64,000 bases of DNA, taken from a bacterium. GTDB lineage: Bacteria; Patescibacteriota; Minisyncoccia; Minisyncoccales; CG1-02-41-26. The DNA lies in NCBI GenBank assembly GCA_030648255.1, contig JAUSHZ010000007.1, positions 24,404-88,403 of the forward strand. Direction: 5' to 3'. Below the pieces are notes generated by a model. That model made no database searches, had not been told where the DNA came from, and worked only from the letters and a program-made list of their open reading frames with translations. The position numbers and the translations under genes are program-made. Every line of letters starts with the position of its first letter. The stretch's first letter is position 1. Positions 3,086-49,784 of this stretch are shown here, one piece after another.

Positions 3086-3304
3086 TCATTTAAGTCTATA
3101 AACTATTCTGCCTCTTTTATCATCAATAGAGGCCATTTCAACCAACACCTTATCGCCCAACAAAATTTTTATGCGATTAATTCTAAGCTTCCCGGCCAAA
3201 TGCGCCAAAACCTCGTTTCCATTTTCCAATTGAATTTTAAATAAAAGACTAGGCAAAGCCTCTACAACTTGGCCTCTTTCTCTTATTGTATTAATTTGTT
3301 TCAT
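3086..3304 (-). CDS. infA: Translation initiation factor IF-1
   Basis: 72 aa S1-like OB fold; GQVVEALPSLLFKIQLENGNEVLAHLAGKLR..ILLGDKVLVEMASID. Confidence 0.93.
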   Translation of the reverse strand: MKQINTIRERGQVVEALPSLLFKIQLENGNEVLAHLAGKLRINRIKILLGDKVLVEMASIDDKRGRIVYRLK

Positions 3305-4738: not shown

Positions 4739-4866
4739 GTTAGAAATTCTTAATTGAGTGGCGAATTTATGAGCCGTGAAATTTAGAAGTTTTTAGTCCT
4801 CCGTAAATTCAAACTTCGCCTACTGACTCGTTTTCATTAACGGATTACTTATTCTACCACAAAAAT
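4739..4866 (-). repeat. Intercistronic structured element, copy 5 (short form: E3 / no M / S3-like)
   Basis: alaS stop to the ATG of the 459 aa gene. Ends AATTTCTAAC-ATG. E3 stem ttcttaatt/aatttagaa and S stem agtcctccgt/acggattact are present, but the middle domain is missing. Confidence 0.8.
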
Positions 4867-12409: not shown

Positions 12410-12841
12410 TTACTTTACTGTTCCTCCTGCTTTTTCTATTTTAACTTGAGCAGCTTTTGAAACCAAGCAATCCTCAATAGTAAGTGATTTAGTAAGTTCG
12501 CCATTTCCTAAAATTTTTACCAATGGAACTTTGCCTATAATTTTTCTAATTAATTTTTTATCAACTAAAACTTCCGGGGTAATTTTGTCTCCTTTTTCAA
12601 AATTCTTTTCTAAAACATTAAGATTTATAGAGGCTGTTTCTTCTCCTCTTAATTCCTGCCTGTATCCTCTTATTTTTGGATATCTTTTAATAATCTCTCT
12701 CATAAAGGGTTGCATTTTTCTCCCAGCCCTTGATTTTTGGCCTTTGCAACCCTTCCCACAGTAAGTTCCCTTCTTGCCTCCTCTGCCAATTCTTTTTCTA
12801 TCTTTTGTCTTATTATTTGGTTGTATTTCGTGAATTTGCAT
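12410..12841 (-). CDS. rplO: 50S ribosomal protein L15
   Basis: 143 aa; KRIGRGGKKGTYCGKGCKGQKSRAG block. Confidence 0.93.
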   Translation of the reverse strand: MQIHEIQPNNKTKDRKRIGRGGKKGTYCGKGCKGQKSRAGRKMQPFMREIIKRYPKIRGYRQELRGEETASINLNVLEKNFEKGDKITPEVLVDKKLIRKIIGKVPLVKILGNGELTKSLTIEDCLVSKAAQVKIEKAGGTVK

Positions 12842-13007
12842 GTTAGTAATTCTTAATTGAACTGCGAACGATTAGTGAGCTGTGAAATTTAGAAGTACTT
12901 ACACCCTGTGGAGTAGAAATTTGCTCTGCAAATTTCTGTTTTAAATTTTTAGTAAAAAATTTAAAACTACTCCACGGGGTAAATTCCGCCTTCCACTCAA
13001 ACTTCGG
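12842..13007 (-). repeat. Intercistronic structured element, copy 7 (E3 / M-B / S2; S2 continues into the rpsE 3' end to about 13040)
   Basis: rpsE stop to rplO ATG. S2 homology (..cttcggctaatcgcctcgttttcgtggggcgtcattta) extends 33 nt into the rpsE coding sequence. Confidence 0.9.
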
Positions 13008-13526
13008 CTAATCGCCTCGTTTTCGTGGGGCGTCATTTAACTGTTGTAAGGCCGCTACTGTTGCCCGGGCGATATTTAATTTATTTCTTGATCTTGACAA
13101 TAACTTTGATGATATATTCCTAATTCCAGCTAAACTGCAAATAACTCTTACCTGGCCGCCAGCCACCAACCCCCTACCTTTTGCCTGAGGCCTTAACAAA
13201 ACCCTTGCTGGGCCATACTTTGCTGTAACCTCATGGGGAATTGTTTCCTCAAACATTGGAACAGAAATTAAATTCTTCTTGGCCAACCGAGTTGATTTTT
13301 CAACAGCAATTGCCACATCAGGCCCCTTGGCCACACCTAATCCAATTTTTCCCTTTTTATTGCCAACCACCACAACTGCCCTAAACCTCATTTGCTTTCC
13401 TCCCTTTGTTACTCTTGTAACTCTGGCTAAATCTAAAACCACCGAGTCGAACTCATCTTTCGGTTTTGCTGGAAATTGACCTCTTCTTTCTCTATTAAAT
13501 TTTCCTTGTTGTTGCTGTTGTTCCAT
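13008..13526 (-). CDS. rpsE: 30S ribosomal protein S5
   Basis: 172 aa; VTRVTKGGKQMRFRAVVVVGN..GLGVAKG and S5 C-terminal domain. The last ~10 codons ([10 protein letters not shown]) are encoded by element sequence. Confidence 0.93.
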   Translation of the reverse strand: MEQQQQQGKFNRERRGQFPAKPKDEFDSVVLDLARVTRVTKGGKQMRFRAVVVVGNKKGKIGLGVAKGPDVAIAVEKSTRLAKKNLISVPMFEETIPHEVTAKYGPARVLLRPQAKGRGLVAGGQVRVICSLAGIRNISSKLLSRSRNKLNIARATVAALQQLNDAPRKRGD

Positions 13527-15974: not shown

Positions 15975-16577
15975 CTACCGCTCAACCTTCGCCTTCGGCT
16001 CGGCTTCACGGGCAGAAGCCTTAAATGGAAACCCCAGCAATCTTAATAATGCAGCGCCTTCTTCCTTTGTTTTGGCTGTTGTTGAAATTGTTACTTCTAA
16101 TCCAAAAATGCCTTTCTCTTTTTCAACTTTCAATTCAGGAAATGGAACATACTCTTTAAATCCAACTGTAATATCTCCTTGGCTTGTCATAGATTTCTCT
16201 TCAACGCCCCTAAAGTCTCTAGACCTTGGCAAAACAACCCAAATCAACTTCTCTAAAAAATCATACATTCTTTTCTTTCTTAAGGTGCAGCTGGCTCCAA
16301 CCGCCATACCTTCTCTTAGCTTGAAAGCAGCAATTGATTTTTTTGCTTTATTTAGAGATGGTTTTTGCCCGGTAATAGCGGCTATTGATTGAGCAATATA
16401 TTCTTCCGCTTTTTCTCTCTCACTGGCGCTTTTTCCAATAACCATTTTGCCAAAACCGCAATTAACAACAATCTTCTTTATTTTTGGCACAGCCATAACA
16501 GAACTATACCCGAATTTCTTCGTCATTTCAGGAATAACTATTTTATTGTATTGCTCTTGTAATTTCATATTTTTCAT
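15975..16577 (-). CDS. rplE: 50S ribosomal protein L5
   Basis: MKNMKLQEQYNKIVIPEMTKKFGYSSVMAVPKIKKIVVNCG.. Start is ambiguous (16577 or 16568). The ORF-track N-terminal 19 aa lie over an upstream hairpin. Confidence 0.9.
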   Translation of the reverse strand: MKNMKLQEQYNKIVIPEMTKKFGYSSVMAVPKIKKIVVNCGFGKMVIGKSASEREKAEEYIAQSIAAITGQKPSLNKAKKSIAAFKLREGMAVGASCTLRKKRMYDFLEKLIWVVLPRSRDFRGVEEKSMTSQGDITVGFKEYVPFPELKVEKEKGIFGLEVTISTTAKTKEEGAALLRLLGFPFKASAREAEPKAKVER

Positions 16578-27088: not shown

Positions 27089-27550
27089 TTATCGGGCTAG
27101 ATAAGCAAAAGCTTTGTTGGCTTCGGCCATTTTATGGACATTGATTTTCTTTTTCACTGCCTCGCCCTCCCCCTTGCTTGCCTGCATAATTTCTTCAGCT
27201 AATCTGCTGGCCATATCTTTGCCTTTTTTCTTTTGGGCAGATGAAATAAGCCATCTCATGGCCAAGCTCAAAGCCCGTTTGTCTTTAACCTCTCTGGGCA
27301 CCTGATAAGTAGCTCCCCCAACACGCTGTGGCCTCACTTCAACTTTTGGAGCAGCTTCTTCTAAAGCTTTTTCAAAAATATCCATTGGCTCTTGTTTGGT
27401 TTGCTCTTTGACAATATCAAAAGCGCTATAAACAATTTTTTGGGCAATGCTTTTTTTGCCTTGAGTCATTACAGTGTTTATAAATTTTGCAACAATAACG
27501 CTGTCATAAGATGAATCAGGCAATATTTCTCTTGTTTTAAATTTAGCCAT
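27089..27550 (-). CDS. rpsG: 30S ribosomal protein S7
   Basis: 153 aa; KFINTVMTQGKKSIA..VEVRPQRVGGATYQVP. Confidence 0.95.
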   Translation of the reverse strand: MAKFKTREILPDSSYDSVIVAKFINTVMTQGKKSIAQKIVYSAFDIVKEQTKQEPMDIFEKALEEAAPKVEVRPQRVGGATYQVPREVKDKRALSLAMRWLISSAQKKKGKDMASRLAEEIMQASKGEGEAVKKKINVHKMAEANKAFAYLAR

Positions 27551-27814
27551 GTTAGTAATCGTTAATGAATGAGTGGCGATTAGCCACGAGTGAATTTACG
27601 AGGACTTACACCCTGTGAAGTAAGATTTGAGGTCTCTTCCAAAAAGTGTATTCTCTTAAACTTTTAACTATTTTTCTCTCGCATCAATTGTTAATAATCG
27701 TACCCTCAAATCTTAATTTTAAATTTTTTACTAAAAATTTAAAATTACTTCACGGGGTAAATTCCGCCAACCGCTCAAACTTCGGCTCATCGCCTCGTTT
27801 TTGCTGGGCGTCAT
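27551..27814 (-). repeat. Intercistronic structured element, copy 17 (E4 / hybrid M with ~85 nt extra arm / S2)
   Basis: rpsL stop to rpsG ATG. Extra arm closed by aagatttgagg/ccctcaaatctt. The S2 arm ends gggcgtcat+tta. Confidence 0.88.
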
Positions 27815-28231
27815 TTAACTTTTAACTCTTTTTGCTCCGTATTTAGATCTTCCATTTTTTCTGCCAGCCACCCCTGTGGTATCTAAATGTCCTCTAACAA
27901 TATGATATCTCACGCCGGGTAAATCTTTAACCCTTCCCCCTCTCACCAAAACCATTGAGTGCTCTTGTAGGTTGTGGCCTTCCCCGCCAATATAAGCAGA
28001 AACTTCTTTGCCATTTGATAGCTTAACCCTGGCTACTTTTCGTAAAGCCGAGTTTGGTTTTTTTGGAGTAACTGTGAAAACCTTAGTGCAAATTCCTCTC
28101 TTAAATGGAGACGCGTAGTCCTGTGGCCTGTTTTTTAAAACATTAAAACCATAAGTCAAAGCTCTCATCTTGATTGTTTTTTTCACTGGCTTTCTTGGCT
28201 TTTTAATTAATTGATGAATTGTTGGACACAT
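27815..28231 (-). CDS. rpsL: 30S ribosomal protein S12
   Basis: 138 aa; [39 protein letters not shown]. Confidence 0.95.
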
Positions 28232-28366: not shown

Positions 28367-29317
28367 TTACTTACACTGCTGGGGTTTCACAGAGGTGCAG
28401 GTCAATGTTCCGTCAAGTGCTGTGCACCAAGTAATTCCTGCTTTGTCTGTATCTCCAATTCCCAAACAGCCAGTCAACGCTCCACTTCCTATCATAACTG
28501 TTGTCGAAGCAGAAGACGACACCTCCAAATTATACGCCGGCGTTGTCGTCCCAATCCCGATATTACCCTTCAATATTGTTTTCGTAATACTAGTATTTCC
28601 TAAAGTTACAGAATTGCTGCCATTGCCTATAGCACTCGCTCCTATTACTATTTCATTGGTATTCCCGTCTGCTCCAGCCATTGCGTTATAACCCTCATAA
28701 ACAGAGTTACTGGAAGTTGTATTGGCGGTAACACCATCGGCAATATAAACACCAGCCTTCGTGCCATTGGCGGTGTTTTGATAACCAGTATTATAGTAGA
28801 GAGCCTGCATACCGTTAGCGGTATTTTGATAACCAGTAGTGTTTGAGAAAAGAGCCTGCATACCGTTAGCGGTATTGTAATCGCCAGCAGTATTAGAATA
28901 AAGGGCATACACGCCATTAGCTGTATTTGTATATCCTGTAGTGTTAGAGTAGAGAGATCTATAACCAACAGCAGTATTATAACCCGCTTCATTTGTACTG
29001 GCTGTTGAACTTGCCATCCCCGCTTGATAGCCAACAAAAGTATTGTATAAGGATACATCATAATGACCTGCCTGGTAGCCAATATTAGTTTTAAAGCCAA
29101 TATTATTAAAATCAATTAGATCAGTAACCGCTATACCAAGAGAGGTTAGATATGTAGTAGTAGTTGTAGCTAATGTGCTAGTACTAAAAACATCTAGAGC
29201 TCCCCCAATAGAAACATTATTACCAATTGTGGTAACAGCTTGGGCGACTATAACTACGCAAAAAACCGTTGTTATGACGCTCACTACTACAGTAAAAATT
29301 TGCTTTTTATTATTCAT
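28367..29317 (-). CDS. Secreted/surface repeat protein (tail-fibre-like or adhesin-head-like repeats)
   Basis: 316 aa; N-terminal signal anchor and about 10 tandem 14-15 aa units (GYxNTANGxxALYSNT). The C-terminal KGNIGIGTTTPAYNLEV motif is recalled from fibre-like proteins. Confidence 0.7.
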   Translation of the reverse strand: MNNKKQIFTVVVSVITTVFCVVIVAQAVTTIGNNVSIGGALDVFSTSTLATTTTTYLTSLGIAVTDLIDFNNIGFKTNIGYQAGHYDVSLYNTFVGYQAGMASSTASTNEAGYNTAVGYRSLYSNTTGYTNTANGVYALYSNTAGDYNTANGMQALFSNTTGYQNTANGMQALYYNTGYQNTANGTKAGVYIADGVTANTTSSNSVYEGYNAMAGADGNTNEIVIGASAIGNGSNSVTLGNTSITKTILKGNIGIGTTTPAYNLEVSSSASTTVMIGSGALTGCLGIGDTDKAGITWCTALDGTLTCTSVKPQQCK

Positions 29318-48956: not shown

Positions 48957-49115
48957 ATTTTTTTATTATATTATAATTATATTAGAGCTGGCAATAATAG
49001 CTTTTAGGAGACCACGAGGGTACCCTCCGCGCATGTGGAGGTCTTAATACTTGTGGTAAATCCTAGGAGACGCCACTCTATAAAAATCATCTCTTTTGAG
49101 GTGTTTTTTATTATT

Positions 49116-49784
49116 TTATTTTTTGTTAAATTCTTTCCAATAATCTTTAAATAATTCTTGTGAAGCAATAATATTACTGTGTAAAATTTCATAAAACTTT
49201 TTTCCAAATGGTCGGTTAGTGTAATAGCGATATAATGCCCCGCAAATCCAGTCGGCAATTTGTATATTAGAATCAGTTGCAGAATCAACAGTATTTACAT
49301 AAACGCTCGCTTTTTTAGATAGTTGCAAGATAATATGCAAACGCAAGTTTTCTTTAAATTCTTTTTGTGAAACTTTTTTCAAACTTCTATGGTCTAAATT
49401 AAGAATAATTTGTGGCTCTGCGTTAGGAAAAATAATATCAAGAGTTTTAGCTATTATCTCAGTATAAAGACGGCCCGACTCAACAGCGCTTTTTCTTCTA
49501 AATTCCAAAGGAATATTTTCTGATTTTAGAAAAGAATAAAAAATACGGATATTTTGTTGAGCTAAATATAATAGTGTTTCAGCGCGCAATTTATCAGTTA
49601 AACGAGCATCGGTGAACTTAACTTCCCTGCGGAATTTAAGTTTTTTGTTAGCAAATTTTGCGTCTTGCCACTTGCGAAACGCTTTGGCAGTGGTTCGTTG
49701 ATTGCCAATAATAAACCCGCCGACTATGAAAAGTTTTTCTTTATCACCTTGAAAATTACCAGATTCATCAATAAAAATATACAT
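49116..49784 (-). CDS. DUF3800 family protein
   Basis: 222 aa; MYIFIDESGNF N-terminus and C-terminal ..IQIADWICGA. Confidence 0.7.
   Translation of the reverse strand: MYIFIDESGNFQGDKEKLFIVGGFIIGNQRTTAKAFRKWQDAKFANKKLKFRREVKFTDARLTDKLRAETLLYLAQQNIRIFYSFLKSENIPLEFRRKSAVESGRLYTEIIAKTLDIIFPNAEPQIILNLDHRSLKKVSQKEFKENLRLHIILQLSKKASVYVNTVDSATDSNIQIADWICGALYRYYTNRPFGKKFYEILHSNIIASQELFKDYWKEFNKK

Follow-up and report, generated by a model that had tools for sequence, protein, structure and literature searches.

The window that we analyzed, a stretch of 64,000 nucleotides from a Patescibacteria (Paceibacteria-like, CPR) genome, contains on its minus strand a str-S10-spc-alpha ribosomal gene cluster. 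Within this cluster, the rpsE ORF was matched by both domains of ribosomal protein S5, namely PF00333 (residues 27-90, 82.1 bits) and PF03719 (residues 102-166, 75.9 bits), each above its cut-off, and the two domains together with the gene order L18-S5-L15-SecY identified its product as uS5. The best homologues were S5 proteins of Candidatus Pacebacteria/Paceibacterota MAGs (93-98% amino acid identity), and the exact S5 protein of the window had no match in the public collection. The features of the junction between the S5 and L15 genes are collected in Table 1; loci from other genomes are referred to by L numbers, and protein tails are given up to their stop.

Table 1 Features at the junction of the S5 and L15 genes, in window coordinates
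Feature	Position	Strand	Basis or remark
rpsE (ribosomal protein S5)	13008..13526	-	ORF, 172 aa; Pfam PF00333 and PF03719
Nine S5 codons NDAPRKRGD, 5' arm of repeat hairpin D1	13011..13037	-	translation and homology to non-coding D1 copies
S5 stop TAG, in the apical loop of D1 (GAUUA-G)	13008..13010	-	GAG in paralogous copies
Usual TAA of the repeat (where the preceding gene stops in most other copies)	13037..13039	-	+1 relative to the S5 frame
Second in-frame S5 stop, TAA within CTAAC	12843..12845	-	1 nt before the L15 ATG
D1 (S2 module of the original prediction, type b)	12980..13039	-	fold and covariation; base UAAAU pairs with AUUUA
D2	12904..12979	-	fold; stem CCCCGUGGAGUAG/CUACUCCACAGGG with two AU-rich hairpins
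D3	12842..12903	-	fold; ends ..UUACUAAC immediately 5' of the L15 AUG
Putative insertion, 195 nt	12842..13036	-	excision restores the S5/L15 overlap; ends ambiguous within TAAATG
rplO (L15)	12410..12841	-	Pfam PF00828, synteny; start codon probably within the S5 3' end ancestrally

In the sense of the S5 gene, positions 13043-13008 read CAG TTA AAT GAC GCC CCA CGA AAA CGA GGC GAT TAG (the junction as assembled reads CAGTTAAATGACG), and the predicted C-terminal peptide with its repeat-encoded tail is ..ATVAALQQLNDAPR / KRGD. The 63-nt D1 module at 12977-13039 was identical at 58 of 63 positions to copy 3 (2692-2754) and at 56 of 63 to copy 17 (27755-27817) of an interspersed repeat; in both of these copies, the terminal plus-strand TTA is the stop of the upstream ORF. 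A 44-nt probe taken from the S5 stretch matched 2711-2754 with 2 mismatches, whereas shuffled sequences gave an expectation of 0.00 matches. The original prediction that S5 ends in repeat sequence, with the canonical TAA lying one nucleotide out of frame and the read-through finishing at the TAG, was thus borne out by these alignments and by the translation of 13043-13008. Its estimate of about ten element-derived codons was right as to the read-in but has to be corrected to nine codons plus the stop, because the L codon (13038-13040) straddles the boundary between native and repeat sequence, TAAATG being common to both. Apart from the TAG and the TAA at 12843-12845, the S5 frame is open through the whole repeat, and without the T of the TAG (G in the paralogous copies) S5 would gain 55 residues.

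The repeat is present in the window in 17 copies of 128-300 nt, each of which fills the interval between the stop of a gene and the ATG of its downstream neighbor. All copies are co-oriented with the genes, and the genes of the element-bearing region are all on one strand. Each copy folds as three abutting hairpin domains, D1-D2-D3, of about 200 nt in total and with no linkers between them: D1 starts at the stop codon, D2 follows the pattern CCCYGUGRAGU...ACUYCACRGGG, and D3 the pattern UGUAAG...CUAAC. In the basal helix of D3, UGU pairs with ACA, the final A of which is the A of the L15 AUG. The minimum free energy (MFE) of the whole S5-to-L15 repeat was -70.6 kcal/mol, compared with -35.4 +/- 3.5 for shuffled sequences (z-score -10). 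Across D1 of 12 copies, 97.5% of the cells were paired, as against 27-37% when the partners were slid, and both sides had changed in 9 of 20 pairs; D1 is a genuine conserved hairpin. The modules combine freely, with D1 occurring in types a-e, D2 in at least two types and D3 in three to four. Sense and antisense strands of the repeats fold equally well (mean MFE -78.3 vs -78.7, with 27 vs 39 G-U pairs), so that the data are silent on whether the hairpins act as RNA or as DNA.

Some copies depart from this plan. One D2 hairpin of the copy at 27549-27817 holds an extra insert of about 100 nt (27640-27740), as does the L18-to-S5 copy of L001, and such inserts indicate that the repeats can be expanded internally, either by nested insertion or by an additional module. 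Partial repeats, consisting of a D1-like part and D3 or of D3 only, were found in the window (4739-4866, minus strand), in L001 (1534-1598) and in L002 (2640-2736). One partial repeat stands after alaS and before a gene for a 459-aa GlxA-like protein, and metagenome copies were also located upstream of dnaJ-like and membrane-protein genes (L103, L095); in view of the copy between alaS and the GlxA-like gene, the family is not strictly limited to ribosomal genes. At L093 (7-727) and L096 (2906-3626), which derive from JGI Ga0210049_1002969 and Ga0210017_1000736, the S14 gene and its flanking repeat are tandemly duplicated with a 350-nt period and three repeat copies, which may reflect unequal recombination between repeats or, in both samples, an assembly artefact. 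On the plus strand between 12285 and 19684, we counted 27 terminator-like matches (hairpin plus T-run), while 7.0 +/- 2.3 were expected; most of them fall within repeats, and all are on the strand antisense to the genes. As consensus matches, they raise the idea that the repeats could serve as stops for antisense transcription.

Comparison of the repeats with Rfam gave no match at or above the gathering threshold, only sub-threshold miRNA-hairpin noise (across the window, Rfam detected only one tRNA and a DUF3800-V RNA), and ARAGORN found no tRNA- or tmRNA-like match in them. Several candidate identities were rejected. Promoter-like sites were not enriched within the repeat (22 vs 17.6 +/- 3.8), the exception being a weak -10-like TAAGAAT in a single D3 type. 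A small ORF beginning at the ATG of the repeat (TAA-ATG) is not coding, for its frame varies between copies with the length of D1 (59-75 nt) and its stops are scattered, and no reading frame is conserved through the repeat. A phage origin was discarded, as the 61 viral contigs matching the 21-nt core of the D2/D3 junction all lacked the neighboring motifs and were chance matches. A pair of the D2 stem that in the window had looked like a wobble kept to the exclusion of Watson-Crick pairing did not hold up once further copies were included (C-G in 12 and U-A in 3 of 38). In integron attC sites, R''(RYYYAAC) immediately follows the cassette ORF, R'(GTTRRRY) marks the 3' end of the cassette, and an integrase is adjacent; here, the CTAAC-type sequence is at the wrong end, just 5' of the next ATG, the genes belong to the ribosomal core and keep their conserved order, and the ORFs scanned include no integrase. 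With MITEs, the repeat shares a size below 300 bp, a non-coding, multi-copy nature and a presence that differs between relatives. However, it has no terminal inverted repeats: its 5' end TAAATGACGC.. and its 3' end ..AATTACTAAC are not complementary and fold into the separate hairpins D1 and D3. As regards a target-site duplication, an ATG stands at both ends of D1(a/b) copies (TAA-ATGACGC..CTAAC-ATG), not of types c, d and e; the junction is ambiguous within TAAATG. A scan of the 20 largest ORFs of the window other than ribosomal ones turned up no transposase or other mobilizer gene, RAYT included. A literature search of incomplete coverage returned no relevant description of the repeat in Patescibacteria, CPR or Parcubacteria, which speaks weakly for an undescribed family.

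Relatives free of the repeat at the S5/L15 junction (L002, L106 and L012-L018) revealed what the insertion had interrupted. In L002-L005, which come from four JGI samples and whose S5 is 98% identical in amino acid sequence, the tail is ..QQLKIKQYADKRPKTTT, and the L15 ATG lies inside S5 with an overlap of 32 nt (..CAA CAA TTA AAA ATT AAA CAA TAT GCA GAT AAA CGA CCT AAA ACC ACA ACA TAA, in which the L15 start reads ..T ATG CAG ATA..). In L106/L107 (94% identity), S5 ends in ..LKTNANPRNTTATQK and overlaps L15 by 38 nt, and in L013-L018, six loci from five more distant species representatives, S5 crosses the L15 ATG in the xAT-Gxx register. L012 has a clean junction, LKTKA followed by the stop, ttt and ATG. 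The S5 tails of repeat-free relatives are longer (KIKQYADKRPKTTT, KTNANPRNTTATQK) and overlap L15, and the S5 of the window is 5 residues shorter (172 vs 177 aa). When 12842-13036 was removed in silico, a tail of this ancestral type, ..QQLNANSRNTTK, was obtained, the full product being ALQQLNANSRNTTK followed by two stops. The like excision gave LKVNADKRFTTTT for L001 and LKINADKRFKTTTQK for L006, and all three excised tails closely match real repeat-free ones, so that a simple insertion is sufficient to explain the present arrangement. Furthermore, S5 tails of the [Y/H/N]A..S.KT type, widespread in dozens of Patescibacteria S5 proteins, are explained as what the start of the L15 gene (MQI...) encodes when read in its other frame. 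Taken together, the sequence comparisons identify the S5/L15 overlap as the probable ancestral arrangement. In the element-poor L002, native spacers between ribosomal genes measure 1-16 nt or are overlaps; some of them end in ..ACTAAT ATG, which resembles the ..CTAAC ATG of the repeat.

These observations led us to conclude, with a probability of roughly 85%, that the repeat inserted just upstream of the L15 ATG, within an ancestral S5/L15 overlap, and thereby replaced the S5 tail and stop: since the repeat stands directly 5' of the L15 ATG and inside the S5 ORF, it cut S5 off from its native tail and stop. In the ancestor, the last ~10 S5 codons and the stop would have overlapped the first ~10 codons of L15. 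A non-coding, hairpin-rich element of about 195 nt would then have inserted immediately 5' of the L15 start codon, leaving S5 to run into D1 up to the first in-frame stop, the TAG of the apical loop. A native tail of 14-15 aa would have been exchanged for one of 9 aa, presumably with roughly neutral effect, and the nine new residues would be a by-product of sequence constrained by the hairpin. We had started from two options, a C-terminal extension recruited from the repeat or an element that invaded the gene end. The empty sites and the excision speak for invasion, and no net extension took place; by sequence comparison, the tail is most likely a replacement that left S5 slightly shorter. The opposite direction, with NDAPRKRGD as the native S5 C-terminus and D1(b) as a copy of the S5 3' end that later spread, might be argued from the Pfam S5_C match, which reaches residue 166 and hence into NDA, and from the basic ..RG.. 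motif that canonical bacterial S5 tails (E. coli, B. subtilis) carry at a comparable position. We regard it as extremely improbable, because repeat-free relatives and distant Patescibacteria are without the NDAPRKRGD tail and overlap L15 instead, because D1(b) and D1(a) covary as a single hairpin family and D1(a) stands behind numerous unrelated genes, and because the excision brings back the ancestral tail.

The insertion reading also accounts for the frame. The 5' end of the repeat, TAAATGA, blocks two frames, one with TAA and one with TGA, and S5 comes in by the remaining one. In a set of 23 distinct D1(a/b) copies, the upstream gene used the TAA frame in most cases, the TGA frame in two (ORF 3086-3304 and L095) and the third frame only at S5-to-L15 junctions. 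The conserved register of the S5/L15 overlap predicts third-frame entry and, in consequence, a TAA that is off by one; the N codon AAT of S5 occupies the place of the ancestral xAT. This cause, an ancestral overlap together with its conserved register, was absent from the original prediction, which had supposed that the 5' boundary of the element shifts relative to the stop. That supposition was imprecise, as the 5' end of the repeat is fixed and it is the frame of entry of the upstream gene into TAAATGA that varies. The ORF at 3086-3304 (minus strand; 72 aa), which stops at the TGA of TAAATGA (3086-3092), comes after a 38-aa rpmJ-sized ORF and is by position a putative infA.

Once inside the repeat, S5 does not run far: the run-ons of all S5 copies are at most 12 codons long, as against a median of ~21 for the same frame of other copies. 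The T that creates the stop in the window is specific to the S5 copy (GAG in paralogous copies), and in L001 a D1 loop shorter by 2 nt brings a TGA into the S5 frame. In this small sample, the short run-ons suggest selection for early termination. The L5 gene also reads into its own repeat copy (D1 type e; 15975-16021, minus strand), where the TAA of the repeat (in TTTAAGG) is likewise out of frame; L5 ends in ..GFPFKK in L002 and in ..PFKASAREAEPKAKVER in the window, with a TAG at 15975-15977.

We then considered a 1-nt assembly or sequencing indel near 13037-13043, whose correction would make the protein end in ..ALQQ. In favor of such an error, the exact S5 protein has no public copy, and the window allele, including a junction that is 6 nt shorter than in relatives with the read-in and is without K[VI], is known from this single assembly. 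However, the same-frame read-in (AAT GAY GCC) was found in L001/L010 (GCA_028718785; tail ..LKVNDASRKQGEAKV, stop TGA), in L009 (the Logan assembly of SRR22388187), in L006-L008 (three NCBI assemblies; tail ..LKINDAPRTPKHGEV) and in L108. An identical entry frame in three other lineages from independent assemblies makes an assembly error unlikely; in addition, the 6-nt difference preserves the frame, the site has no homopolymer run beyond TT/AAA, and an in-frame TAA would delete the L that is kept after ALxx in every homologue. We judge the frameshift error, which had been raised as a caveat at the outset, to be very improbable.

The tails themselves differ between lineages in sequence and in length and are the least conserved part of S5, as the proposed comparison with orthologues established; the repeat-free relatives carry other tails, which overlap L15. 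The differences correspond to compensatory changes in D1 (CCAC/GTGG, CCGC/GCGG and TCGC/GCGA, encoding P, P and S, respectively), and since the changes in the tail track D1 pairing, the constraint is on the hairpin and not on the peptide. As far as these sequences tell, the tail peptide is without sign of conservation. In the remnants L011 (2990-3045) and L108 (640-715), D2 and most of D3 are lost, and the part of D1 that encodes the S5 tail is kept, together with the last 14-23 nt before the L15 ATG; in L011, S5 ends in ..KDAPKTQVVSETK, and its stop is followed by GAATTACTAAA and ATG. One might read this retention, along with the short run-ons and the stop-creating T described above, as adaptive recruitment, i.e. 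the keeping of a basic repeat-encoded tail for S5 or the ribosome, for example for an rRNA contact. We consider this distinctly unlikely, as neither the sequence nor the length of the tail is conserved and its substitutions follow hairpin pairing. Moreover, the need for a stop codon is also a simple explanation for the retention of this part of D1, and the short run-ons, observed in very few lineages, speak for selection against long tails, not for the NDAPRKRGD tail.

The distribution of the repeat does not follow S5 similarity: the closest S5 (L002, 98% amino acid identity) is without the repeat, whereas more distant ones (93%) have it, so that independent insertions or recombination are needed. 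L002 (4061-4994) and the window (12410-13526) share 87% nucleotide identity in S5 and SecY but 77% in L15, which suggests, though does not prove, that L002 is a recombination mosaic with its breakpoint at the S5/L15 junction. The N-terminus of L002 L15 resembles that of L001. A 21-nt pattern from the D1/D2 junction retrieved 13 metagenome contigs with repeat copies plus L100, an apparent chance match, and in these sequences the family appears restricted to a narrow clade.

With the insertion, translation of the two genes would have changed as well. S5 ribosomes are expected to unwind the 5' arm of D1 and to reach their stop within the apical loop, 166 nt upstream of the L15 AUG, so that the tail would be translated and early stops would be favored. 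The L15 AUG, formerly coupled through the overlap, would now be paired at the base of D3, and L15 would start independently or by re-initiation. An SD-like 4-mer stands upstream of only 4 of the 62 long ORFs of the whole window, and the start codons of these ORFs are preceded by A/T-rich sequence. In a different reading, the repeat would be an intercistronic RNA module. Its hairpins would juxtapose the upstream stop (at the D1 base) and the downstream AUG (at the D3 base) for termination-reinitiation coupling, which seems unlikely to us. That terminating ribosomes re-initiate across 200 nt in the Shine-Dalgarno-less Paceibacteria is just as doubtful, and we would put no greater trust in the proposal that S5 ribosomes entering D1 open the structure for L15 and so replace the overlap-based coupling. 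The geometry fits such a module, as the stop takes part in the basal pairing of D1, the AUG with its A in that of D3, and no linkers separate the domains; native spacers that are so short or are overlaps and the scarcity of SD-like 4-mers point the same way, as does the orientation of all copies with the genes, a weak test where the genes are all on one strand. Against it stand the lack of strand asymmetry in folding and the resemblance to selfish DNA of a repeat that is present or absent between close relatives and occurs as partial copies and remnants.

Among known systems, the repeat is closest, functionally and anatomically, to BOX elements and to palindrome mosaics of the REP/BIME type. 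In Streptococcus pneumoniae ATCC 700669, the stops of 36 CDSs, including those of dnaJ and folE, lie inside a BOX element (PMC3049150). BOX elements (boxA/boxB/boxC) resemble the repeat in being modular, up to a few hundred nt long, tightly folded and co-transcribed, and they often overlap extreme gene 3' ends, as the repeat does at S5 (PMC3049150). The likeness is one of description: BOX belongs to an unrelated taxon, and the repeat has no Rfam match. In BOX, the terminal inverted repeats pair together, whereas the ends of the window repeat are in separate hairpins. Unlike BOX, the repeat fills the whole stop-to-start interval in tightly packed operons of translation genes, and at S5 it took the place of a native tail reaching into the next gene. 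In Coxiella burnetii, QMITE1 and QMITE2 extend over 1-50 bp at the C-terminal ends of functional genes; in the Dugway strain, the final 33 aa of EnhC are encoded by a QMITE2 that lies in frame, and in another strain an indel places the stop before the element (PMC5896051). This run-on is frame-dependent, like the read-in of S5, but QMITEs possess terminal inverted and direct repeats and a link to IS1111, none of which was seen in the window repeat. The supply of gene ends by repeats is therefore already well documented (BOX, Coxiella MITEs), and S5 is a further instance.

REP/BIME sequences at gene 3' ends can affect the expression of co-transcribed genes (PMC3049150). Like them, the repeat is a mosaic of extragenic imperfect palindromes; it lies in transcribed spacers at the 3' ends of genes, between co-oriented members of operons. 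REP units are about 35 bp long and are mobilized by RAYT transposases. The modules of the window repeat, in contrast, are compound hairpins of 60-76 nt, and no RAYT occurs among the 20 ORFs scanned. Rickettsia palindromic elements (RPE), in work attributed to Ogata and colleagues in Science in 2000, are reportedly selfish palindromes that are tolerated in protein-coding genes and lengthen essential proteins. An RPE sits in frame inside the body of a gene and is translated over its whole length, whereas only nine terminal codons of S5 come from the repeat and are ended by a stop inside it. Finally, a ribosome termination structure (RTS) is a stable mRNA hairpin right 3' of a stop that governs re-initiation in operons (PMC7518266). 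D1 fits this description at most copies, but at S5 the stop sits in the hairpin loop instead, and an RTS is a general feature of how mRNA folds locally, whereas the window repeat is a repeat family.

What the S5 case adds is a traceable rewriting of the end of an essential, highly expressed gene by an interspersed repeat, in which several stages can be seen: the ancestral overlap, the insertion, stops that differ between lineages and limit the run-on, and later internal deletions after which S5 retains a fossil tail. Repeat insertion explains the high variability of the S5 C-terminus in this clade, and annotators should not "repair" such genes as frameshifts. The larger interest lies in a modular three-hairpin repeat that fills exact stop-to-start intervals in the translation-gene operons of an SD-less CPR lineage. 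Two further features of the window were recorded. Four tandem 51-nt repeats (28739-28939) lie within a 316-aa ORF without Pfam match (28367-29317, minus strand), and the DUF3800-V RNA (48983-49080, plus strand; 41.9 bits, above the gathering score) adjoins a DUF3800 protein gene (49116-49784, minus strand), as expected for this motif.
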